A DNA stretch of 64,000 nucleotides from an uncultured bacterium (lineage in GTDB: Bacteria > Latescibacterota > UBA2968 > UBA8231), in the NCBI GenBank assembly GCA_964011675.1, contig CAXGPR010000006.1, positions 10,611 through 74,610 on the forward strand, in the 5' to 3' direction. This document shows positions 52,191 to 64,000 of the stretch, piece by piece. Every line of letters begins with the position of its first letter. Positions within the stretch are counted from its first letter, which is position 1. The notes below the pieces were generated by a model. That model worked only from the letters and a program-made list of their open reading frames with translations. It was not told where the DNA came from and made no database searches. Both the position numbers and the translations under genes were made by a program.

Positions 52191-52906
52191 ATGCGATCCT
52201 CAAAGGTATACTGAGGTTGGAACTTAAGCGCATTGCAAATGCGCTCCGAAGAGAAGCGAGCCCGGTCAGATACGGACTGTAAATGAAGGACGTGATAGGA
52301 CCGAGGTCGACGCGGATCCAGCGTCTTCCGCTTTTGCAGAAGGAGACCAACGGCGCGAGCCGCATCGCGTTGGTCAACCCACATGGGATCGTACTTTTGT
52401 TCGGTAACATCTTCCGATAGGACCACGTGCCCGAGGCGGAGTACAGCGACGTCGAGTGCATTGCTGTGGGCAAACTCACGCGCGGTGAATTCCGCTAGGT
52501 GCGCCCCGAGTTGGGCCGGGCTAGTGTTGGGCTGCGGCTGCCAGTGTTCTCCCACCGTCATTTCAACATCGTAGGGTTGGAATAGATCCAGCGTGCTGAT
52601 GACCAGTGCGAAAGACACGTCGGCCTCCGATGCGGCCAGCAGCAAATTGTAGTGGCGGCGAGAATTGATATCGAGCCACTCGTTTTCTCCGTCGTTTGGA
52701 CGGGGTGCATGGGCCAGATGGACGATGGCATCGATGCCTTGAACGAGCGCGTCCGTCGCTTCATCATGTCCTAGGTCACTCCGCACAAACTCCAAGTCTG
52801 TAGAGATTTCTTCTCTATCGGTCAGACGAACCTGATGATCGGTGCGCAAAGAGTCTGCTATAGCTATAGCTAGCGGGCTGGCGGCACCAGTAATAAGAAC
52901 TCTCAT
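52187..52906 (-). CDS. Extended-SDR-fold protein with degenerate catalytic motifs
   Basis: ITGAASPLA, DAIVHLA, SPAQLGAHLAE in place of YxxxKxxxE, WVDQRDAARA; ATG at 52906. Confidence 0.65.
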   Translation of the reverse strand: MRVLITGAASPLAIAIADSLRTDHQVRLTDREEISTDLEFVRSDLGHDEATDALVQGIDAIVHLAHAPRPNDGENEWLDINSRRHYNLLLAASEADVSFALVISTLDLFQPYDVEMTVGEHWQPQPNTSPAQLGAHLAEFTAREFAHSNALDVAVLRLGHVVLSEDVTEQKYDPMWVDQRDAARAVGLLLQKRKTLDPRRPRSYHVLHLQSVSDRARFSSERICNALKFQPQYTFEDRI

Positions 52907-52917
52907 GTGATGACCTC

Positions 52918-54399
52918 TCAGAGAATTTGTTGGTCTACGTTCATCGGGACAATGTCGTGTATCTTGCTGTCCATCAGAGCAGATGGGGACTGCATCTCGA
53001 GAACTGCATCGGCGTGTAGGCTGTCTATTGTGCTGCATCCGGCCGTCGCCAATGTGGCTCGTAGCATTTGCACGACCGTGGGCAATTTGTCAAAGATGGA
53101 GCCCACATGGGGCACATAGCCGGAAATGCCTTCCTCAAAAAAGTTTTCTTTGGTTTGCGCGTAGCGCCGCATATTATGGGCCCGCATGCTTCCTTCCATC
53201 CAGTATTCCTTGACGATCTCACCCGCGGCATTGCGCATGAGGCTGCCTTGGCTCTCGGTGTAGCGAGCGAAGAAATTGCCCATCATGATGGCGTTAGCGC
53301 CTAGGGCTAAGCCAATCGACATTTCTGCCGGTCCGGAGATGCCGCCGTCGGCAACGAGCGGGATATACGAGCCCGTATCTTTTTGCCATTGGTCACGCGT
53401 CGCTCCCACCTCCATAAGCGTCGTGCCCTGACCACGTCCAGTGGCCTTTACTTCTTGCGTGGTGCAACCGGAACCGATGCCCATGCCTACTTTGACCGCG
53501 TCTGCACCGGCTTCGGCCAAGAAGCGAAATCCGTCCGACGTAACAATATTGCCGCCAATGACGGGTGTATCGCACTGCTGTTTCACGTACTGAATCATCT
53601 CGCGCTGATACTCGGTGTGCCCATCGGATGCGTCTATTACGAGCACATCGACGTCGTGTTCAACAAGGGCCTGCACGCGTTCTCGGTCTTCGGGATGCGT
53701 GGAAATGGCTGCACCAACCAGGAGCCGCTTTTGACTGTCAATCGATTCGTTTGGGTGACGTAGATGCTTATCGAGGTCTTTTTTAAATACGACGGTTTGC
53801 AGGATGCCATCTTTGGATAGGATGGGCAGAAAGCCCCGCCCATAGCGAATCATCAGTTCGTTGGCCGACCGCAGTTCAGTCACCTCTGTGCCCGACTGCA
53901 CGTCTGTCTTCATGCGCTCCTCTACGGTGCATTCCAAGTCGCGTCGTTCGTCAAAATCCTTGTCCGTTAAAATGCCGATAAGCTTGTCGTGGAACTGGCC
54001 ACTTTGGGTAACGGGAAAGGTCGTGTAACCCGTATTGCGAATGATGCGGGCTACTTCGGAAATGGACTGTTGGGGAGCCAGCGTAACAATATTGGTTTGG
54101 AATCCCGCTTTGAAGCGCTTTACTTGGCCCACCTTGGCACACTGCTCGTCTATTGGCTGACTGACGGGCAAAATGCCAATCCCGCCTAGCTGCGCGAGTG
54201 ATATGGACATCTCTACGCCTGTTACTGCCTGCATCGCAGCGCTCAGAAAGGGTGTATTGAGGTAAACAAAATCATCCCCCTTTCGGCACAGACGCGTTTT
54301 TAGCTCGACTTTGGGTGCATTGCCATCGGTAGGCGTATAGCCGGGCAGGATGCGAAATTCTTTGAGGCTGTGCGAAGGGTTTGGCAAAACCTTGGCCAT
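52918..54399 (-). CDS. guaB: Inosine-5'-monophosphate dehydrogenase with CBS domains
   Basis: [13 protein letters not shown] pair, [25 protein letters not shown] (catalytic Cys), ADGGI, flap [12 protein letters not shown]. Confidence 0.88.
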
Positions 54400-54569
54400 G
54401 GGCGCGCTTTCTCCGGGGCTTGGAGATGATTAAATGGCAAGATAAAGGTGCATTGAAAATAAAAAAATAGGGTCTAGGAGTATTTTCTTCAATAGGTATC
54501 GGATGCACTTTTCCCGTAAAGTGCGTTATTTTAGATGACGAGTGTTTATACTCTAACAAAGGAACAGAG

Positions 54570-54818
54570 ATGGGATATCAGCGATTTTATCCGCAACAGA
54601 GAGAATCGACAGGCATTGGCGCATTCTTGGCAGGCCTGGGGTTGGGCGTTCTAATTGGCGCGGCCATGGGCATGCTGTCTGCTCCGCATCGAGGTGATGT
54701 GACGCGCCGTAAAATTGTGCGTCAGGCCGGCGTAGCGCGCGATCAGGTTGTCGATGCCGTAGAGGATTTCGTCGAGCGTCGCGCCGAGGGAGACGAGCTA
54801 GAAAACGGCGAGGCGTAG
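54570..54818 (+). CDS. YtxH-domain small membrane protein
   Basis: FLAGLGLGVLIGAAMGMLSAPHRGDVTRRKI. Confidence 0.85.
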   Translation: MGYQRFYPQQRESTGIGAFLAGLGLGVLIGAAMGMLSAPHRGDVTRRKIVRQAGVARDQVVDAVEDFVERRAEGDELENGEA

Positions 54819-54819
54819 T

Positions 54820-56616
54820 CTATTCTCGCCCCGCCGCGCCGTCGTAGTTGAGCTGGTGCAGGCGCGCGTAAATGCCGCCCTGTTGAATGAGCTCGTCGTG
54901 CTTGCCCCGCTCGCGCACTTGGCCGTGGTGGAGAACGAGTATTTGATCTGCACTGCGGATAGTCGATAGGCGATGTGCTATGACGATGGAAGTGCGGTCG
55001 TGCATCAGCTTGGCAATGGCGTCTTGAATAAGCTGCTCGGTCTCGGTGTCGATTGATGAGGTCGCCTCGTCTAAGACGAGTACCTCCGGGTTGAAAGCTA
55101 GTGCACGAGCAAAGGAGAGCAGCTGTCGCTGGCCGGAGGAAAGAGTCGATCCTCCTTCGGCCACGACCTGCTCGTATCCGTTGGGCAGCTTCTCAATAAA
55201 GCGGTCGGCGTTCACAAAGCGGGCAGACTCCTCTATGCGCTTTTGGTCTATGCGCTTGTATCCGAGCCGAATATTGTCGCGCACGGTGCCAGAAAACAGG
55301 AACACGTCCTGCTGCACAATGCTGATCCGCTCGCGCAATTCCTCTGCGTTCCACTCCTTTATTTCTACTCCATCTACAAATATTTCACCGCGTTGGATGG
55401 GATAAAAACGGCACAGTAAATTGACAATCGTCGTCTTACCCGAGCCGGTGGCTCCAACCAAGGCCAAGCTCTGGCCAGCTTCAACGCGAAACGATACGTC
55501 ATTTAAGATCCAATCTTTTGCCTGTTCGTCGTATTTAAAGTGGACATTCCTGAATTCAATTGTGCCACCGCGCTGCTGAAGCGCTCTGTCTCTCCGCGGG
55601 CCTCCTTTGTCTTCCGGTGGCGTCTCCAGCAACTCGAAAATGCGTTCGGATGAGGCCATGGCACTCTGCAGCAGGGCGTAGCGGTCGCTGATGTCCATGA
55701 TAGGGCGAAAAAAGCGACGGATGTACTGGAGAAAGGCCACTAGCACGCCGAAGGCTACCCGCTCCGAAAGCACGGCGGATGAACCGAACCATATGACGGC
55801 GGCCATGCCCAAAGTGCCCACTAGCTCTGTGAAGGGGAAAAAGATCGCGTAGTAGAAGATCTCGTGCTCTTCGGCGCGGCGGTAGGGGAGGTGCTCGCGA
55901 TCAAAATCCCGCAAATTGCGCTCTTCTCTGCTAAAGAGCTGGACCACTTCCATACCGGTAATATTTTCTTGAAGGTAGGCGTTGAGGCGCGCCAGTCGCG
56001 TTCGGATTTCGCGGTAGGCGACCATGGCTTGGTTCTGTAGATAAAAAGTAGAGATGGCCAGCACTGGAACCACGAGACAGCAAATGAGCGTCAGTTCGGG
56101 ATCAATGGAGACCATAAAGATCAGGATGGCCACGAGGGTAAACAAGTCCATAAAGACCGAAACGATGCCTTCACTAAAGAAATCGCTTAGTGCTTCTACA
56201 TCGTTGGTCGTGCGCGTCATGATGCGCCCGAGCGGCGTGTGGTCAAAATAGCGCAGCGGAAGTTTCTGCAGGTGAGCAAAGATGTCGCGGCGTATATCGA
56301 GCATGACGTGCTGCCCCATGATTTCGGTGACCAGCGTTTGTGCATACTGCGATACGTACTGAACGAAGATGCTGGCAAAGAAAGCAGCGATAACCCACTT
56401 GAGGCCCTCGTAGTCGCCCTGGGCAATGTGATCGTCTACGGCAATCTTTGTGAGCCAGGGACCCACTTGGCTAGAAAAGGCGGAGAAGGCAATGGTCACA
56501 AAGGCCAGAGTAACGCGTCCTTTGTGCGGCTTGAGATAGGTCAGCAGCTTGCCCAATAGACGTGGGTTAAATGGGCGATGCTGGATCTCCTCTTCCTTGT
56601 TGAGCTCTTCGCTCAC
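54820..56616 (-). CDS. ABC exporter half-transporter (MdlB/BmrD-like)
   Basis: TMD plus NBD; GATGSGKT, degenerate signature LSSGQRQ, LDEATSSID, IAHRLST. Confidence 0.92.
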   Translation of the reverse strand: MSEELNKEEEIQHRPFNPRLLGKLLTYLKPHKGRVTLAFVTIAFSAFSSQVGPWLTKIAVDDHIAQGDYEGLKWVIAAFFASIFVQYVSQYAQTLVTEIMGQHVMLDIRRDIFAHLQKLPLRYFDHTPLGRIMTRTTNDVEALSDFFSEGIVSVFMDLFTLVAILIFMVSIDPELTLICCLVVPVLAISTFYLQNQAMVAYREIRTRLARLNAYLQENITGMEVVQLFSREERNLRDFDREHLPYRRAEEHEIFYYAIFFPFTELVGTLGMAAVIWFGSSAVLSERVAFGVLVAFLQYIRRFFRPIMDISDRYALLQSAMASSERIFELLETPPEDKGGPRRDRALQQRGGTIEFRNVHFKYDEQAKDWILNDVSFRVEAGQSLALVGATGSGKTTIVNLLCRFYPIQRGEIFVDGVEIKEWNAEELRERISIVQQDVFLFSGTVRDNIRLGYKRIDQKRIEESARFVNADRFIEKLPNGYEQVVAEGGSTLSSGQRQLLSFARALAFNPEVLVLDEATSSIDTETEQLIQDAIAKLMHDRTSIVIAHRLSTIRSADQILVLHHGQVRERGKHDELIQQGGIYARLHQLNYDGAAGRE

Positions 56617-58361
56617 AGCGTCTCCAGTTCGGCAGCCAGCTGCTGTCGTGTGTGTAGATCGGCATAGAAACCGCCGTGCTTTAAGAGCTTTTCGTGGGTT
56701 CCCTGTTCGGCGATGCGTCCCTCATCTAAGACAATAACGTGATCGCAGTGGCGCAGGGTCGATATGCGATGGGCAATAATCAGCGTAGTTCGCCCTTTCA
56801 TTAGGCTACTCAGATGACCGAGCACGGCCTCTTCCGTATGGGTGTCCACGGCGGAAAGTGAGTCGTCTAGGATGAGAATCTGCGGCTGGCGCAGGAGTGC
56901 GCGTGCCAACGTAGAGCGTTGTTTCTGTCCGCCGGAAAGGGTCACGCCGCGCTCGCCAATAAGTGTCTCGAATCCACTGTCGAACTCGATCACGTCCTTG
57001 CGCAATTGGGCCCACTCGGCCGCCTGATGGATTTCTGCATCGGAGGCTGAATGAACTCCGTAGGAGATATTGTCAGAAATGGTATTGGAGAACAGGAAGG
57101 GATTTTGCGATACGTAGCCAATGGCACTGCGGAGCTGGGAGAGCGGCCACTTTTCTATGGGCACACCGTCGATAAAGAGCTGGTTTGATCCAGACTGAAT
57201 AAGGCGCGGTATGAGGCGAGCTAGAGTCGTTTTTCCCGAACCGACGCGTCCCATGATACCCACTGTGGTGCCAGCTCGAATCCTGAGGTTCACGTCGTTG
57301 AGGACGGGCGCGTTGTCGCCGTAGGCAAACGTCAGCGAGCGAAACTCAATCTCCCCGCGCGCGGAGTGGGCTATGGGCTGCGTATTGTGGTCGCGTATCT
57401 CGGGTTCGACGTCCATCACCTCGTTGATACGGCGTATGGCGACTAGTGCGCGTTGGAAGCGATCAATCACCCATGCAGAGTACATGATTGGGCGGATGAG
57501 TTGGGTCAAATAGGCGTTGAAGGCGACAAAAGCTCCCAGCGAAAAATTACCCTCAATAACGGCTTTTCCTCCCAGCCATAGGTTGATGCCTAGACAAACA
57601 GAAGCAACCAAGTGCGTAAGGGGCCGATACGAAGCACGCGTTTGAATAAGCCGGCGATTCTTCTCCAAATACTCGTTGTTAAGCTCGCTGAACGTTTCGT
57701 TTTGAGCAGGACCTTGCACATAGGCTTTGATGACGCGAGATCCGGCTAGGTTTTCTTGGACGTAGTTGCTCATCTCGCCAAAGAAATCCTGTATGACGCG
57801 AAATCGGTTGTGAACTAGTGTGGCCATGCGCGTCAGCAGTACCACAAATATGGGAACCGGCGCAAAGATAATGAGGGCTAAACGCCAGTCTAAGTAACAC
57901 ATCCAGCCTATGCTAAAGAGAAAGATGAGGCTGGACTCCACGATGCCCCGCACGCCGTAGGTGAAGAAAATGCGGACGGAGTCCAGGTCGTTGGTTGCCC
58001 GGGACATGAGGTCACCGGTGTGCTGTGTTTGATAGTAGGAAAGGGGTTGTTTGAGCAGATGGGCGAAGTAGGCCGTTCTTATATCGTATTCTATGCGGGC
58101 CGAGACGTGGCCTAGCAGAATACGCATCATGTAGCTACACAGGGCAACGAGCAGAGCCAGTAAGACAATTTTTAGAACATCCGTTTGAATGTCTTGGAAG
58201 CGCATAGCTTCGGACACATACTGTTTCTGCAGCGTATCGATAGCCTCTTTGACGACCATGGGGATGTAGTTGCTGGCAGCCTGGGCGACGCCGATGGCCA
58301 AAACGCCCAGCAGTAGCCGGATTCTGTAGGGACGGACGTATGAAGAAAAAGGACCAAACAT
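56613..58361 (-). CDS. ABC exporter half-transporter (MdlA/BmrC-like)
   Basis: GDLMSRATND, GRVGSGKT, LSGGQKQR, degenerate Walker B LDDSLSAVD. Confidence 0.92.
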   Translation of the reverse strand: MFGPFSSYVRPYRIRLLLGVLAIGVAQAASNYIPMVVKEAIDTLQKQYVSEAMRFQDIQTDVLKIVLLALLVALCSYMMRILLGHVSARIEYDIRTAYFAHLLKQPLSYYQTQHTGDLMSRATNDLDSVRIFFTYGVRGIVESSLIFLFSIGWMCYLDWRLALIIFAPVPIFVVLLTRMATLVHNRFRVIQDFFGEMSNYVQENLAGSRVIKAYVQGPAQNETFSELNNEYLEKNRRLIQTRASYRPLTHLVASVCLGINLWLGGKAVIEGNFSLGAFVAFNAYLTQLIRPIMYSAWVIDRFQRALVAIRRINEVMDVEPEIRDHNTQPIAHSARGEIEFRSLTFAYGDNAPVLNDVNLRIRAGTTVGIMGRVGSGKTTLARLIPRLIQSGSNQLFIDGVPIEKWPLSQLRSAIGYVSQNPFLFSNTISDNISYGVHSASDAEIHQAAEWAQLRKDVIEFDSGFETLIGERGVTLSGGQKQRSTLARALLRQPQILILDDSLSAVDTHTEEAVLGHLSSLMKGRTTLIIAHRISTLRHCDHVIVLDEGRIAEQGTHEKLLKHGGFYADLHTRQQLAAELETL

Positions 58362-58477
58362 TAAACGCGTTGCTCACCTCTCGAAGGCGCGAAGTTGAAT
58401 TTCAATCGATGATATGGAGGGAAATGCGTTTAAAAATATAGGGGGCGGTTTCTGGCGCAACAAGGTGCGAGATCGAT

Positions 58478-59119
58478 TCAGAGGGCTAGCTCGGGAAAGG
58501 TCTGCTGAAGTGCGGGGTAAACTGCCTCTAGGGCCTTTGCGCGATGGCTAAGGGCGTTTTTTTGCTGTGCAGCCATCTCGGCCATCGTGCAATCGTGCTC
58601 TGGGAGAAAAAAGATTGGATCATAGCCAAAACCTTGCTGGCCGCTTGGCGCGTGGGCAATTCTACCTTCGCACGTGCCTGCCGCTTGGCACGTGCGGCCA
58701 TCAGGCGCCGCCACAAAGAGGGTGCAGCAGAAGCGCGCAGTGCGCTGCTGTGGATCGGGAAAAGCTTCCATGTGCTCAAGCAGTAAGCGGTAGCGCCCGA
58801 CGTCGTCTAAGCCGGTGCCGCCGTACCGAGCCGAGAAAACGCCCGGAGCGCCGTCCAGTGCATCAACCTGTAAGCCGCTGTCATCGGCTAGGGAGATTAG
58901 GCCCGTCTCAGAGGCAAAAGCGCGCGCTTTTAGAGCGGCGTTAGCGACAAAGGTTGAGCCGGTCTCTTCAACATCTAAGTGAAGGTTGAGATCGTCTGGA
59001 CACACGACCTCCACGCCGTTTAGCAGAGCGCGAATTTCGCGTATTTTGCCCCCGTTGTTGCTTGCTACCAACAGGCGTGTGCCGCTAGGGCTGTTGGTTT
59101 GCTCGATCAATTTCTTCAA
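58478..59119 (-). CDS. rdgB: dITP/XTP pyrophosphatase (RdgB/HAM1)
   Basis: ASNNGGKIRE, EETGSTFVANAALKA, ADDSGL, GAPGVFSARY, GFGYDPIF, KNALSHR; exact start uncertain (overlaps the TPR gene). Confidence 0.93.
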   Translation of the reverse strand: MKKLIEQTNSPSGTRLLVASNNGGKIREIRALLNGVEVVCPDDLNLHLDVEETGSTFVANAALKARAFASETGLISLADDSGLQVDALDGAPGVFSARYGGTGLDDVGRYRLLLEHMEAFPDPQQRTARFCCTLFVAAPDGRTCQAAGTCEGRIAHAPSGQQGFGYDPIFFLPEHDCTMAEMAAQQKNALSHRAKALEAVYPALQQTFPELAL

Positions 59120-60152
59120 TTTGGTGCGCTACGTAATCCTTAAACCGGCTGTCTTCCTGCGCGCGGGCGTAGTGCGTGCGCGCTTGGCGCATTTGCCCCA
59201 GTTTAAAGTAGGCATCGCCTAAGAGAGCCTGCGCCGCAGCCAGATTTCTATCGTGGCGGATGGCGGATTGTCCGGACTCAATGGCTTTTTGGTATGCACC
59301 CAAGCCGTAGTGTGCTTCGCCGAGGCGGAAATGCGCATCGGCATTTTTCTTGTCCAATTCCGTAGCACGCTTCAATGGTTCAATCGCTTCGTGCTGCCGT
59401 CCGAGTTGGTTGAGCGCTGTGCCGAGAAAGAGATAGCCTTCGGCATACTTGGCATCTGCCTCAAGAGCTGTTTGCATGAGCTCTAAGACGCCTTCAACGT
59501 CTTGCGTAGCAAATTTGACGCGGGCGAGTCCTCCGTAGGCCGCCATGTATTTGGAGTCGGCATCGATTGCCTTCTGATAGGTTATCGATGCAGGACCGTA
59601 ATCGCGCCGACGGCGCTGCATGTCTGCCAGTTGATAATAGGCTTTGGCGTGTTCAGGGTCTGCCTTGACTGCGCCTTCGAAGGCATTTTGCGCCTTCGCC
59701 TCATCGCGGTTTCCGCTGTGGGACAGGCCTAAAGCATAGAGTGTTTTCGCATTGTTGGGGTCCAATTGAAGTGCCTGTTCAAAGCGAACTACGGCCTCTC
59801 TATATTTGCGCTGCTGCAAACTGGCAATGGCTGATTTGTTATACAGCTTGCCCAGCGCACTTGCACATTTTTCCGGGCGGATACCGAGCTCACGTGCTTT
59901 CTCGTAGGCGCTTATTGCCTTTTCGTATTCGTTGAGCACGTTGTAGGCTTGGGCGAGTAAGTAGTGCGCCTCGCCGTATGCAGGATTGGCGTTAACGGCC
60001 TGCTCAAACTCGATGGCGGCGTTGCGAAAATTGCGCTTTGTGAGTAGTTCATATCCAGCTCTGTAATGTCCTTCGGCCTTTTCATTCTCCTGGGCGTTGA
60101 CCCCTGATGCGACAATGAAAATCGCGCACAAGCAAAGGGAAATGCGTAGCAT
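59085..60152 (-). CDS. Secreted tetratricopeptide repeat protein
   Basis: Signal peptide MLRISLCLCAIFIVASGVNA (ATG at 60152, GGAG RBS); about 9 tandem TPR-like repeats. Confidence 0.85.
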   Translation of the reverse strand: MLRISLCLCAIFIVASGVNAQENEKAEGHYRAGYELLTKRNFRNAAIEFEQAVNANPAYGEAHYLLAQAYNVLNEYEKAISAYEKARELGIRPEKCASALGKLYNKSAIASLQQRKYREAVVRFEQALQLDPNNAKTLYALGLSHSGNRDEAKAQNAFEGAVKADPEHAKAYYQLADMQRRRRDYGPASITYQKAIDADSKYMAAYGGLARVKFATQDVEGVLELMQTALEADAKYAEGYLFLGTALNQLGRQHEAIEPLKRATELDKKNADAHFRLGEAHYGLGAYQKAIESGQSAIRHDRNLAAAQALLGDAYFKLGQMRQARTHYARAQEDSRFKDYVAHQIEEIDRANQQP

Positions 60153-60244
60153 GCGGGTTGTCTCCAAGGAAGGCAGTGGCAGCTTATAAGTCCCCGTTGG
60201 CACTGCCTTTTGTTTTTGCTGTGCCAAGCGGGTCTCGTCCCGTG

Positions 60245-60475
60245 TTATCGGGTGTCGATGAGTGACTTTATTTCTGTGAAATCGGGATATCTTTTCTCAG
60301 CGAGCTTTGAATAGATGAGCACGTCGTCTAGTTCGATTTCAAAGCGCCCTCCATCAGATGGAACAAGGGCGAACTCGCTGACGTCTTTTTTGTAATGCTT
60401 TAGTAGTTGTTCCGCCAAACTGACGGCTTCGGGTTCGTAGCCTCAGGAAGAACAATAGGTTAGGCGCAGTTTCAT
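60245..60475 (-). CDS. SelW/SelT/SelH (Rdx family) selenoprotein, 76 aa, Sec at codon 11
   Basis: Not in the ORF track. ATG at 60475, in-frame TGA at 60445-60443, TAA at 60247-60245: MKLRLTYCSSUGYEPEAVSLAEQLLKHYKKDVSEFALVPSDGGRFEIELDDVLIYSKLAEKRYPDFTEIKSLIDTR. Has the Rdx motifs YCxxU.Y, GG.FEI and YSK....YP. Confidence 0.92.
60412..60426 (-). promoter_or_regulatory. Candidate bacterial SECIS hairpin
   Basis: mRNA CCGUCA-GUU-UGGCGG (6 bp, two G-U pairs) beginning 17 nt after the UGA; apical loop starts with G. Confidence 0.55.
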
Positions 60476-60522
60476 GACGAAAATCCTTCGGTTATATTGT
60501 TGAATGATTATTATAACGGGGT

Positions 60523-63519
60523 GTGAGCCTGTTGTCAAAGCGCGTAGCAGTCGGCGCGCGCGACCTATTTTCTCGACATTTCTCATCTGAAAGACGGTCG
60601 GTCATCACTTATCAGTGGGTAGTTATTTTAAGTCTGACCCTTCTCTACGCGCCATTTGCTGAACCGCAGAAGTCAGATGCGTTCCCCTACAAACTGCGGT
60701 GGAAATATTTGGTTCCCAATCCGTTGCAGTCGGCGGTGTCCGAAGGGGATTCGCTGTATTTTGTCGCGAGTATGGAAGGACGCCTCTCGGCGTTGCGCAA
60801 AAGCGACGGTGTGCGGATTTGGCGACGGCGCGATCTGGGACCGGTATGGGCTTCCCCTGTCGTGTGGGAAGGGCAGGTGATTGTGGCCGATGCGTGGGGT
60901 CTGGTCCGTTCGCTGCGGACGGATACGGGAGATGAAAACTGGTCCTTTCAGCGCACGGGTGGAGGCCGCTGCGTTCTTGTTCAAGCGGATGATCTGCTGT
61001 ATGTGTCCGCAGCGGACGGCTGGCTGTATGCGCTTGAGTCCGATGGACGGGAGCAGTGGCGTGTGCGCACTGGAAAGGGCGGGGCGCTCGGCGTTGCTGT
61101 GCGCGCCGGCAGAGTGTACACGCGTTCGAGTAGCGGGTGGCTGTCGCTCGATAGCGCTACCGGTCGGCGTATTTTCGAACGGGATCTGGGCGCCCTCGCG
61201 ACGACTCCGCCGAGCGTAATCGAAGGACGGCTTATAGTGGCGACAGGCGATGGATACGTGCGATCTCACGCGCTGGACGATGGCGAGTCGAGTTGGCGTG
61301 CGTGGCTGGGCGCCCGGTTGGTATCGCCGCCCGTCAGAGCGGCCCATTACCTGATGTGCGCCGCAGACAACGGCTATTTGTATGCGCTGTCTTCCAAAGA
61401 CGGACAGATTGCTTGGCGAAGGCGCGTTCAGGGTGGCACCGACGGGGGCGCGGTGATGGGAGCGTGGGGCGAAATTGTCGTGGCTTCAGGGTCTGGAGAG
61501 ATGACGGGATTTGATCCAATGTCGGGTGATGTATGGTGGTCTGTCCGGTTGGGGCGTGAGAAGGGCACGCGCGTATACGCTACGCAGTCTGGATTATGGG
61601 CCTTGTCTGATGATGGGTACGCCCATGTTTTTACTCCACTGAGTCGAGACCACCGGCCTGATAAATCCGGGATGGTATCGTGGTGGGAGATATTTGTCGA
61701 CGGTAAAAAGACGGGTTATCGCTACGAACGAGTGCTCTCACGGCCGCAGGGCGGATGGGAAATTGAGGTGCGGGAAGTAGATTGGCGCGGGGGCTATCGT
61801 CGCAGCGAACGCGGTATGAGCGTGCGGGATGATTTTCGTCCGATCAGCGCCTGGGCAGCGCAGGCCGATGGGAATCAGGTGGTCAGAGAGCGTGCGCGGT
61901 GGCAGGGCGACGTTGTGAGAGTGGAGCAGACGTTGGCAGGGTATGCGCAGAGAGACAGCGCTGTAGCAGACGAAAGTGCGGTCGATAGGAGCGTGATATG
62001 GCGAAAGCTCGTTGGAGAAAGGCGCCTGCTGCCCGACCGGAGCGACTCGCTGCGCGTATTCGACTGGACGACTCGGCAGAGCTACTGGATCCACTTGCTT
62101 ATGGGGGCAGAGGAAATTGTGCGGGGAGAAAGAGCTCTTCGAATCGACGTAGTGCAGAAGGGGCATGAGGCCTACGCAACGACGTTCTGGGTGAATAGAG
62201 CGGGGCGTGTTGTGCGCGTCTGGCAACCGGCGCGGAGGGTGGAGCAACGCTTGACGGATCGGATCCATGCCGAACGCTGGTCGCCCCCGGCTGCGGATGA
62301 GGCCATCGTTTTGGATCGACCGATCAAGCGTCGGTCGGACTTAGACTGGCTGGTCGTCGAACTGCCAGATGACGCATCCAATCCGGATCTATGGCTAGCG
62401 GAAGATCCTTGGCAGAGGGTCTTCCGGGACACGACGGGGCGATTATTGCTCCGTCTGGAGCGCCGACAGGCGTCTCCCGAACCGGCACAATCGCTTTTGG
62501 ATAGTGCGGCATTGCACCCGTATCTATCCCCTTCTTTGTATGTCCATCCCAGCGATCCGCGCGTGCACGCGATCGTCGCTCAGTTGCAGGGGCGCGGCGA
62601 CCGAGACGCTTGGTCCATGGCGATGCGCATCCGCCGTTGGGTGTATGATCACATGGTGCCGCGGAGCACAAATGTGCGTTTTAAATCATCCTCAGAAGTG
62701 CTGGAAAATATGGAGGGGACTTGTAGTGAATACGCGGTGCTTTACATGGCGTTGTGTCGGGCAGCTGGCATACCTGTGCGCGCGAGCGCTGGTTGGGTTG
62801 TTGGTGATGCAGGAGAACTGATGTTGCACATATGGTGTCAGTTCTACGCCGGCTCGTGGATAGACGTCGATCCCACGCAGGACGCCGAAGCGATTGGAGC
62901 CGGATATATCAAAACAGGCAGTGGCTTGCTGACGCCGCATGGGCTACGTCAGTTGAGTGCGCCGCTAAGCCGCTGGATGGCGGCCGTAGATACGCTTTGG
63001 GTTGCCGAATACGGGGTCGAAAGTCGTCGATATGCCCGACGCGCTGCCGAGCTATTTGCCCGCGCAGGCGAGGCCGAACGAAATTTTGAGGATGCGCGCG
63101 CCATCGCCTTGTATCATCAGGTTGACAGGCTGCCTTGGAACGACCACAGTGCAAAAGCGCTGATACAGATCGCGCGCTATCGGCTACGGCGAGAGGAGTG
63201 GGACGATGCGCATTGGGCACTGGATCGGATTATGCGCCAGCTGCCGCGCGGTGACCAAGTTGATGACGCCTTATTTTATCGGGCCAAGCTGGCCGAAGCG
63301 CAGGGTGATAGTGTGGCTGCCGTGCGAGACTGGCAGGCCTTAGTGCGAGAATTTGCCGACTCTGAATTCGCCGATGATGCGCTTGGTCAACTCGCTGCCA
63401 GAGCCGAACAACGCGATGGTTGTGTTGCTGCGCTGCGATACTACGAGCAGCTGCGCGAGCAGTATAGTCGAACTGGATGGGCTGCGGTTGCGCGCTCTGC
63501 GATAGAGCGCTGCAGGTAA
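60523..63519 (+). CDS. Exported multidomain protein: PQQ-like beta-propeller + beta-sheet domain + transglutaminase-like core + TPR
   Basis: Repeats such as LYVSAADGWLYAL..DG...WR and CAADNGYLYAL...DG...WR; WWEIFVDGKKTGY; triad GTCSEY (C734), LHIW (H769), DVDPT (D783); C-terminal DDALFY...LVREFADSEFADDAL TPRs. Start codon uncertain. Confidence 0.8.
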   Translation: MSLLSKRVAVGARDLFSRHFSSERRSVITYQWVVILSLTLLYAPFAEPQKSDAFPYKLRWKYLVPNPLQSAVSEGDSLYFVASMEGRLSALRKSDGVRIWRRRDLGPVWASPVVWEGQVIVADAWGLVRSLRTDTGDENWSFQRTGGGRCVLVQADDLLYVSAADGWLYALESDGREQWRVRTGKGGALGVAVRAGRVYTRSSSGWLSLDSATGRRIFERDLGALATTPPSVIEGRLIVATGDGYVRSHALDDGESSWRAWLGARLVSPPVRAAHYLMCAADNGYLYALSSKDGQIAWRRRVQGGTDGGAVMGAWGEIVVASGSGEMTGFDPMSGDVWWSVRLGREKGTRVYATQSGLWALSDDGYAHVFTPLSRDHRPDKSGMVSWWEIFVDGKKTGYRYERVLSRPQGGWEIEVREVDWRGGYRRSERGMSVRDDFRPISAWAAQADGNQVVRERARWQGDVVRVEQTLAGYAQRDSAVADESAVDRSVIWRKLVGERRLLPDRSDSLRVFDWTTRQSYWIHLLMGAEEIVRGERALRIDVVQKGHEAYATTFWVNRAGRVVRVWQPARRVEQRLTDRIHAERWSPPAADEAIVLDRPIKRRSDLDWLVVELPDDASNPDLWLAEDPWQRVFRDTTGRLLLRLERRQASPEPAQSLLDSAALHPYLSPSLYVHPSDPRVHAIVAQLQGRGDRDAWSMAMRIRRWVYDHMVPRSTNVRFKSSSEVLENMEGTCSEYAVLYMALCRAAGIPVRASAGWVVGDAGELMLHIWCQFYAGSWIDVDPTQDAEAIGAGYIKTGSGLLTPHGLRQLSAPLSRWMAAVDTLWVAEYGVESRRYARRAAELFARAGEAERNFEDARAIALYHQVDRLPWNDHSAKALIQIARYRLRREEWDDAHWALDRIMRQLPRGDQVDDALFYRAKLAEAQGDSVAAVRDWQALVREFADSEFADDALGQLAARAEQRDGCVAALRYYEQLREQYSRTGWAAVARSAIERCR

Positions 63520-63596
63520 GCGTCTGTTACTAAACGTGGACTACGGGCTTGGCAATGCTTATTTTTTTTGTTTTATCAGCATACGTGAGGTGTGCT

Positions 63597-64000
63597 TTGT
63601 GTTTTCGTAGAAGGCCTGATGAGAGAGCCCGTGTAGCCAGCTACGTCCTATGGCTGCTCGTGCCGCTATCACTCGCTCAATGTGGCCAGGCACCAGAGAC
63701 GTATATAGACCAGCTAAAAAGCTTACAGGAAAGCAAACGCGTCAAAGCGGCCAACAGACTCATTCGGTTTGATGCCGATGAGGTTGTGCCGCTGCTCATC
63801 GACGAAGCGGAGTCGGGCTATATTCGGGTTCGCTTTGAGGTAGTTGGTCTGTTGGGACGATTTAAAGACCCGCGTGGCATACCTACGCTCATAAACGCGT
63901 TGGACGATAAATCGCCCAACGTGGCCGCGCGTGCCGCCTTGGGTTTGGCGCAGCTGCGCGCAGTGGAGGCCCTGCCTAGACTGCTGCACTATGCGCGCGA
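63597..64000 (+). CDS. HEAT-repeat lipoprotein, 3' end runs off the window
   Basis: Not in the ORF track. TTG at 63597 after GAGG; ...VLWLLVPLSLAQC (lipobox), then KRVKAANRL...VVPLLI, RVRFEVVGLLGRFKDPRGIPTLINALDDKSPNVAARAALGLAQL HEAT repeats. Confidence 0.75.
   Translation, partial: MCFRRRPDERARVASYVLWLLVPLSLAQCGQAPETYIDQLKSLQESKRVKAANRLIRFDADEVVPLLIDEAESGYIRVRFEVVGLLGRFKDPRGIPTLINALDDKSPNVAARAALGLAQLRAVEALPRLLHYAR

Follow-up and report, generated by a model that had tools for sequence, protein, structure and literature searches.

The window analysed here, a stretch of 64,000 nucleotides from a contig (CAXGPR010000006.1) of an uncultured member of the Latescibacterota, carries a gene for a 998-residue, apparently exported protein that joins an eight-bladed beta-propeller, a beta-spiral domain, a transglutaminase (TGase)-like domain with an invariant Cys-His-Asp triad and a C-terminal domain of tetratricopeptide repeats (TPRs). 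We consider it moderately likely that this protein is a periplasmic thiol enzyme that acts on amide bonds as a hydrolase and recruits its protein partners via its two scaffold domains, the propeller and the TPRs. An earlier annotation of this DNA (the original prediction) had not recognised the architecture as a described one, and our searches of solved structures, curated families and the literature likewise turned up no account of the domain combination. What is new is the presence, within one phylum, of two scaffolds on a known but uncharacterised module; the constituent folds are familiar. The parts of the gene are as follows.

60523..63519, + strand: whole open reading frame (ORF), 998 residues plus stop
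60523..60660, + strand: N-terminal export signal, from the protein's own sequence and its homologues
60682..61641, + strand: eight-bladed PQQ/BamB-type beta-propeller, about residues 54-373 (Pfam, AlphaFold2 (AF2) model, Foldseek)
61669..62472, + strand: DUF3108/EipB-like beta-spiral, extended by further beta structure at its C-terminal end, about residues 383-650 (Foldseek, BLASTP to P0144)
62500..63027, + strand: transglutaminase-like (papain-fold) catalytic domain, about residues 660-835 (Pfam, Foldseek, profile)
62722..62724, + strand: codon TGT of Cys734, the predicted nucleophile, in EGTCSEY (alignment)
62827..62829, + strand: codon CAC of His769, in LHIWCQ (alignment)
62869..62871, + strand: codon GAT of Asp783, in IDVDP (alignment)
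63031..63516, + strand: BamD/YbgF-type TPR domain of nine helices, about residues 837-998 (PF13525, Foldseek)
63421-63423, + strand: Cys967, invariant in a 12-sequence alignment
63511-63513, + strand: Cys997, invariant in the same alignment

Over residues 692-784 the catalytic domain scores 58.6 bits with Transglut_core (PF01841; cut-off 23, E 8.6e-16), and the same model is matched by all 29 family members. Cys734, His769 and Asp783 are unchanged in 12 of 12 and in 29 of 29 aligned relatives, down to 26% identity. Foldseek matched the domain to 3isr (E 9.5e-9), TgpA (6g4h) and 3kd4, a profile of the family's catalytic domain matched 3isr at 7e-14 and TgpA at 3.5e-6, and the profile alignment laid the triad on the Cys, His and Asp of 3isr and of TgpA (6g49). 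In the models, as read by DSSP, Cys734 starts a helix (734-747), His769 lies in a strand (765-775) and Asp783 stands just past another (779-782), which is the papain/transglutaminase arrangement as modelled, read at the level of secondary structure. The intact triad named in the original prediction is thus borne out by its invariance, its canonical motifs and its alignment to 3isr and TgpA, and to judge from the sequence the three residues are presumably competent for catalysis. The best match in both structure and sequence, the Cytophaga hutchinsonii putative cysteine protease 3isr, and 3kd4 (BDI_1141), in which beta domains likewise flank the TGase core, differ from the window protein in being much shorter structural-genomics entries of no known function that have neither propeller nor TPRs. 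TgpA of Pseudomonas aeruginosa (PA2873) shares the Transglut_core fold and the aligned Cys/His/Asp, carried on a periplasmic domain (PMC3507681), but it is a polytopic inner-membrane protein that lacks propeller, beta-spiral and TPRs, and its sequence match spans about 60 residues at the triad.

That two protein-interaction scaffold folds flank the catalytic domain, as had been proposed, is supported by the domain calls together with Foldseek. PQQ_2 matches the propeller region (Pfam, E 2.7e-24), and the full-length AF2 model places 31 strands between residues 56 and 372; because this number fits eight four-stranded blades, the earlier count of about eight repeats agrees with the model, and BamB stands first among the Foldseek matches (8orr, TM(target) 0.80, root-mean-square deviation 3.4 A, 19% identity). 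The C-terminal TPRs match PF13525 below its cut-off when the whole protein is scanned (22.4 against 25 bits) and above it when the scan is confined to the last 169 residues (28.1 bits), and their fold matches BamD structures (3q5m) and YbgF (2xev, TM(target) 0.81), which upholds the earlier TPR assignment; the PF13525 match denotes a TPR subtype, not orthology. Cys967 and Cys997 sit at the start and end of neighbouring helices, so placed that a disulfide between them is likely; such a bond would suit an oxidising compartment.

The labels "BamB-like" and "BamD/YbgF-like" that these domains had been given stand for the type of fold and fall for orthology. The protein failed the NCBIfam equivalog models for BamB (TIGR03300, 120.9 against a cut-off of 285.2 bits; NF008351, 72.8 against 423), BamD (TIGR03302, 26.6 against 81.4 bits) and CpoB/YbgF (TIGR02795, 38.3 against 90.1 bits), in each case by a wide margin, and the lipobox is missing; we rejected true BamB, BamD or CpoB on these two grounds. 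A PQQ-dependent dehydrogenase was also rejected (TIGR03075, 32.7 against a subfamily cut-off of 480 bits), and the propeller belongs with the non-catalytic ones of BamB/YxaL type. BamB shares the eight-bladed propeller but is an outer-membrane lipoprotein of about 390 residues, whereas the window protein has 998, no lipobox and a fused enzyme. Similarly, the TPR_6/YfiO-type repeats are shared with BamD and CpoB/YbgF, while the window protein is a non-lipoprotein fused to an enzyme and lacks the coiled coil of CpoB.

The beta-rich domain between the propeller and the catalytic domain opens at W387 (WWEIFVDGKKTGY) and is modelled with a predicted local distance difference test score (pLDDT) of about 90. 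Residues 380-656 gave no Pfam match even at E<=10, DUF3108 (PF11306) and DUF1849 included, and neither family is among the top families of any of the 29 family members. However, residues 387-799 are collinear with P0144 (BLASTP, E 5e-27), a protein whose residues 41-230 are Pfam DUF3108 (E 2.9e-12), and residues 383-650 match the DUF1849 protein EipB (6ntr) in Foldseek (E 1e-6, TM(target) 0.56-0.59); on account of these two matches we take the middle domain to be a beta-spiral like those of DUF3108 and EipB, a label that rests on transitive homology and on fold. The original prediction was right that a beta-rich domain exists from W387 onward; the domain appears to be no orphan, since the DUF3108/EipB-type spiral, joined to a TGase core, makes up a module that occurs in thousands of shorter proteins. 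EipB of Brucella abortus, a 14-stranded spiral of the periplasm similar to LolA and LolB, is required to keep the envelope intact, and its loss is synthetically lethal with that of a periplasmic TPR protein (bioRxiv 10.1101/551135). It has the same spiral-like open beta-barrel as the middle domain, but in Alphaproteobacteria it stands alone, as a protein of about 280 residues without an enzyme domain, and at about 10% identity the likeness is one of fold only.

The full-length AF2 model is of moderate quality (pLDDT 78, predicted TM-score (pTM) 0.53), and that of residues 380-998, built on the 29-sequence alignment, is confident (pLDDT 90.5, pTM 0.84). Because the latter is confident, the packing of beta-spiral, catalytic domain and TPRs appears fixed, and the models suggest a rigid unit of these three to which the propeller is attached more loosely. 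Mean identity to the window protein is highest in the catalytic domain (63.5%) and the TPRs (62.5%), and lower in the propeller (50%) and the beta-spiral (45%).

In a survey of one genome per GTDB species, full-length matches were found in about ten metagenome-assembled genomes (MAGs) labelled Candidatus Latescibacterota, Candidatus Handelsmanbacteria, Gemmatimonadota/Gemmatimonadaceae or "uncultured bacterium". One database source assigns a family member to Latescibacterota, protein names being otherwise generic and automated; the window's organism itself occurs in marine metagenomes. Among the genomes surveyed the full architecture is confined to Latescibacterota-type MAGs, and the other matches, from Planctomycetota, Desulfobacterota, Myxococcota and others, cover just residues 380-830 or so. 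A HMMER search with residues 380-998 as the query, run exhaustively against 1.84 billion representatives, returned thousands of beta-spiral + TGase relatives of 470-670 residues, and a word-index search found no architecture for the module, in the range of 549-1746 residues, other than that of the window protein. DUF3108 + Transglut_core proteins such as P0144 are collinear with it over residues 387-799, have the same triad and possess hydrophobic N-termini suggestive of export; they differ in having no propeller or TPRs, are about 25-30% identical and are uncharacterised. The beta-spiral + TGase pair is accordingly an old, widespread module to which propeller and TPRs were added in the Latescibacterota lineage. 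No paper linking Latescibacteria with transglutaminase was found.

In a separate observation on this module, Desulfobacterota-type relatives of about 495 residues lie in a tight same-strand operon with genes for an M50 peptidase, an ABC ATPase and a PF16949 (ABC_tran_2) permease, the TGase module standing between peptidase and ATPase:

L023 2888-7874: Desulfobacterota-type M50-TGase-ABC operon
L051 2378-7395: Desulfobacterota-type M50-TGase-ABC operon
L026 1268-5220: Desulfobacterota-type M50-TGase-ABC operon

From this arrangement, members of that branch may belong to a system for processing or export, and its peptidase and transporter context differs from the context of the window gene.

The protein is read from the sole long frame in its region, which begins with GTG and ends after 998 codons and a stop; local GC is 55-64% with a steady positive GC skew and resembles the flanks. 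P0002, which is 99% identical, was called at the same length. A GGGG at 60518-60521 lies 1 nt upstream of GTG 60523 and is better spaced from TTG 60532 (codon 4), so that the true start, judged from the nucleotides, may be either codon and is uncertain by these few codons, a choice with no bearing on the other results. The protein's single strongly hydrophobic stretch, residues 26-46 (mean Kyte-Doolittle 1.4-1.6), follows the basic segment RHFSSERRS, and the signal region reads ...YAPFA|EP directly ahead of a conserved FPYxLxWK; homologues bear classic Sec signal peptides that end just ahead of the same motif. The hydrophobic N-terminal segment and the export noted earlier are both supported in this way, and the sequence has the features of a Sec-type export signal. 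The signal region of the window protein has no lipobox Cys, and because few homologues have a Cys there, the family is not one of lipoproteins. A periplasmic location of the protein, of about 105 kDa, is probable. There is a hint of transcription in a single 163-nt marine metatranscriptome contig, which maps to 61748-61907 with 3 mismatches and comes from the same sample as one of the DNA metagenomes described below.

Propellers and TPRs are typical protein-binding platforms of the periplasm, and amide bonds are hydrolysed by several characterised relatives (WbmE, PNGase and the pseudomurein endoisopeptidases). We propose that the propeller and TPRs, perhaps with the cavity of the beta-spiral, would retain a partner, either a protein or a lipoprotein, within the envelope, that Cys734 would attack an amide bond to give a thioester and that water would resolve it, making the protein a peptidase, isopeptidase, amidase or deamidase. 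Hydrolysis of a protein substrate is in our view more probable than transfer, given these hydrolytic relatives and also the first prediction made for Transglut_core proteins of bacteria, which took them for proteases (Makarova et al. 1999, cited by PMC10318531). Several points weigh against the hydrolase. TgpA, the closest characterised relative by sequence, does transfer in vitro (PMC3507681), and both the window protein's family and the module of about 500 residues are biochemically uncharacterised. The placement of the triad is read from modelled secondary structure. In addition, one lineage has lost the gene, as its sequence indicates, and the neighbourhood gives no functional pointer, the HEAT-repeat lipoprotein gene downstream being missing in 4 of 10 loci. 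Nothing in the analysis points to the maturation of surface-layer or outer-membrane proteins, which the original prediction had offered as an example of function.

The less likely, though still credible, alternative is a true transglutaminase, in which an amine (a Lys side chain or a diamino acid of peptidoglycan) would resolve the Cys734 thioester, so that envelope proteins or lipoproteins would be cross-linked to each other or to the wall, with propeller and TPRs selecting the two partners. The evidence from triad and fold applies to it equally, the in-vitro activity of the periplasmic domain of TgpA is a transfer (PMC3507681), two separate scaffolds would fit a two-substrate reaction, and a lipoprotein gene lies downstream in most loci. 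However, no residue-level feature among those examined separates transfer from hydrolysis, thousands of single-module relatives have neither scaffold, and the HEAT lipoprotein is not encoded in all loci.

An unlikely further candidate is a non-protein amide: the enzyme would deamidate or trim an amidated sugar residue in a polysaccharide of the cell surface, or act on a lipid-linked intermediate held in a LolA/EipB-like spiral, and the scaffolds would dock it to export machinery. In its favour are the resemblance of the beta-spiral fold to the lipid-binding proteins LolA and LolB (10.1101/551135) and the GT4, YfhO-like and flippase genes found in related loci a short way downstream, a few genes on. 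These glycan genes are separated from the propeller-TGase gene by hisGDB, though, and the synteny is probably unrelated to function; moreover, propellers and TPRs normally bind proteins, and no homology to WbmE came to light, though no search was aimed at it. Comparably doubtful is a more specific proposal, a lineage-specific enzyme of envelope tethering or maturation, in which the acyl chains of a lipoprotein (e.g. the product of the downstream HEAT gene) would sit in the spiral, the scaffolds would dock outer-membrane assembly machinery or peptidoglycan synthases, and the triad would attach or release the lipoprotein or an outer-membrane protein. If true, a transglutaminase would here do what L,D-transpeptidases do in other phyla, namely tether Lpp or outer-membrane proteins to peptidoglycan.

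It is improbable that the protein has a mainly structural role, assisting outer-membrane protein assembly in the manner of BamB and BamD, or the Tol-Pal or penicillin-binding protein machinery, with a TGase domain that serves for binding only. The fold matches to BamB, BamD and YbgF and the weak matches to their NCBIfam models are what such a protein would give; opposed to them are the failure of every equivalog cut-off (see above), the lack of a lipobox, the pseudogene in one lineage and the strict invariance of the three catalytic residues in 29 sequences, which argues for catalysis. An anti-phage or conflict-system protein was considered separately and rejected, as no PADLOC family matched at E<=0.01, a signal peptide is present and there is no NTPase domain.

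We regard it as next to impossible that neighbouring genes were fused, or sequences wrongly joined in assembly, to give the long ORF, the only point for such an artefact being that some entries of one 90% cluster are split into proteins of 525, 264 and 112 residues, against full-length proteins in many independent assemblies at 26% to 99% identity. The word-index search found 15 clusters of 927-1014 residues covering 93-100% of the window protein at 36-99% identity, and the HMMER search found about 25 clusters (at 50% identity) of 870-1032 residues that match the whole query down to 28% identity and carry an N-terminal extension of about 350 residues. In three marine metagenomes the gene is evenly covered and free of joints and indels; depth is about 14-25x in the first, 10-19x in the second and mostly 4-12x in the third, where it drops below 1x at 62432-62679, and pieces of metagenome contigs bridge the propeller/beta-spiral, beta-spiral/TGase and TGase/TPR junctions. 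With full-length homologues and even coverage across the domain junctions, the test for chimerism suggested in the original prediction gives a negative answer.

The split entries belong to one lineage with a decayed copy and do not represent separate genes. Compared with the intact P0045 (999 residues), the copy at 5798-8739 of L006/L007 is broken by one frameshift and by the in-frame stops TAA and TAG, lacks 6, 3 and 5 residues through three in-frame deletions, and is otherwise about 96% identical; the lineage is widespread, with at least 24 contigs. We rejected both separate genes and recoding of stop codons for its pieces of 57, 525, 264 and 112 residues, given the TAA/TAG at Glu/Gly positions, the frameshift and the three deletions. 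To go by its sequence, the copy appears to be a young pseudogene that indicates recent loss under relaxed selection, and because a closely related lineage carries it, the gene can be lost and is not indispensable.

The envelopes of uncultured phyla of the FCB group such as the Latescibacterota are essentially unstudied, and a well-conserved periplasmic protein that is probably catalytic, and whose gene keeps its place in the genome across the lineage, offers a concrete handle on them. It also draws attention to the very large uncharacterised DUF3108-type beta-spiral + TGase module, with its thousands of members in several phyla, and the fusion to scaffolds suggests that this module acts on proteins that are kept in position. 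As long as no substrate has been identified the practical value stays modest, since the folds are familiar and multidomain fusions of scaffold and enzyme are common in the periplasm.

Two genes next to the propeller-TGase gene deserve listing.

59085..60227, - strand: divergent exported TPR gene of about 360-380 residues, found in every related locus with an upstream flank
63549..64000, + strand: HEAT-repeat gene with a lipoprotein-type N-terminus, cut by the window end (HEAT_2, E 3.6e-15)

The HEAT gene begins 30 nt past the stop of the propeller-TGase gene, and co-transcription of the two is possible. Its product is a protein of about 300 residues (L001 11023-11940), with conserved lipoboxes reading ..VGC, ..LAC, ..SGC and ..GGC in homologues and LAQC in the window copy. 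It was rejected as an obligate partner, being absent from 4 of 10 species-level related loci (L011 and L014-L016), between the propeller-TGase gene and hisG. The exported TPR gene and hisG flank the propeller-TGase gene wherever a locus extends far enough, in a conserved order of IMPDH, YtxH, two ABC half-transporters, Ham1/RdgB and the divergent TPR gene, then the propeller-TGase gene, then HEAT, hisG, hisD, hisB, GT4, YfhO-like and flippase genes. As far as each locus reaches (window about 52900-64000; L001, L003-L005), this order is kept at 36-53% protein identity, and across the related loci as a whole it persists to identities as low as 32-36%. HisG is 71-93% identical across loci where the propeller-TGase protein is 32-76% identical. 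We take the block to be vertically inherited synteny and not a functional operon, save for the possible co-transcription with HEAT, and we rejected an assignment of function from the neighbourhood, as the block mixes in housekeeping genes.

A small Rdx/SelW-like ORF (window 60245-60475, - strand) lies between the divergent TPR gene and the propeller-TGase gene. Its CSS is followed at once by a TGA in frame (MKLRLTYCSS*GYEP...GGRFEI...IYSK); the frame continues past this codon and is 59-88% identical in L008-L010, and at the same position in L006 a 60-residue PF10262 (Rdx) gene is called. With this ORF in place, 47 bp remain between the two divergent starts.

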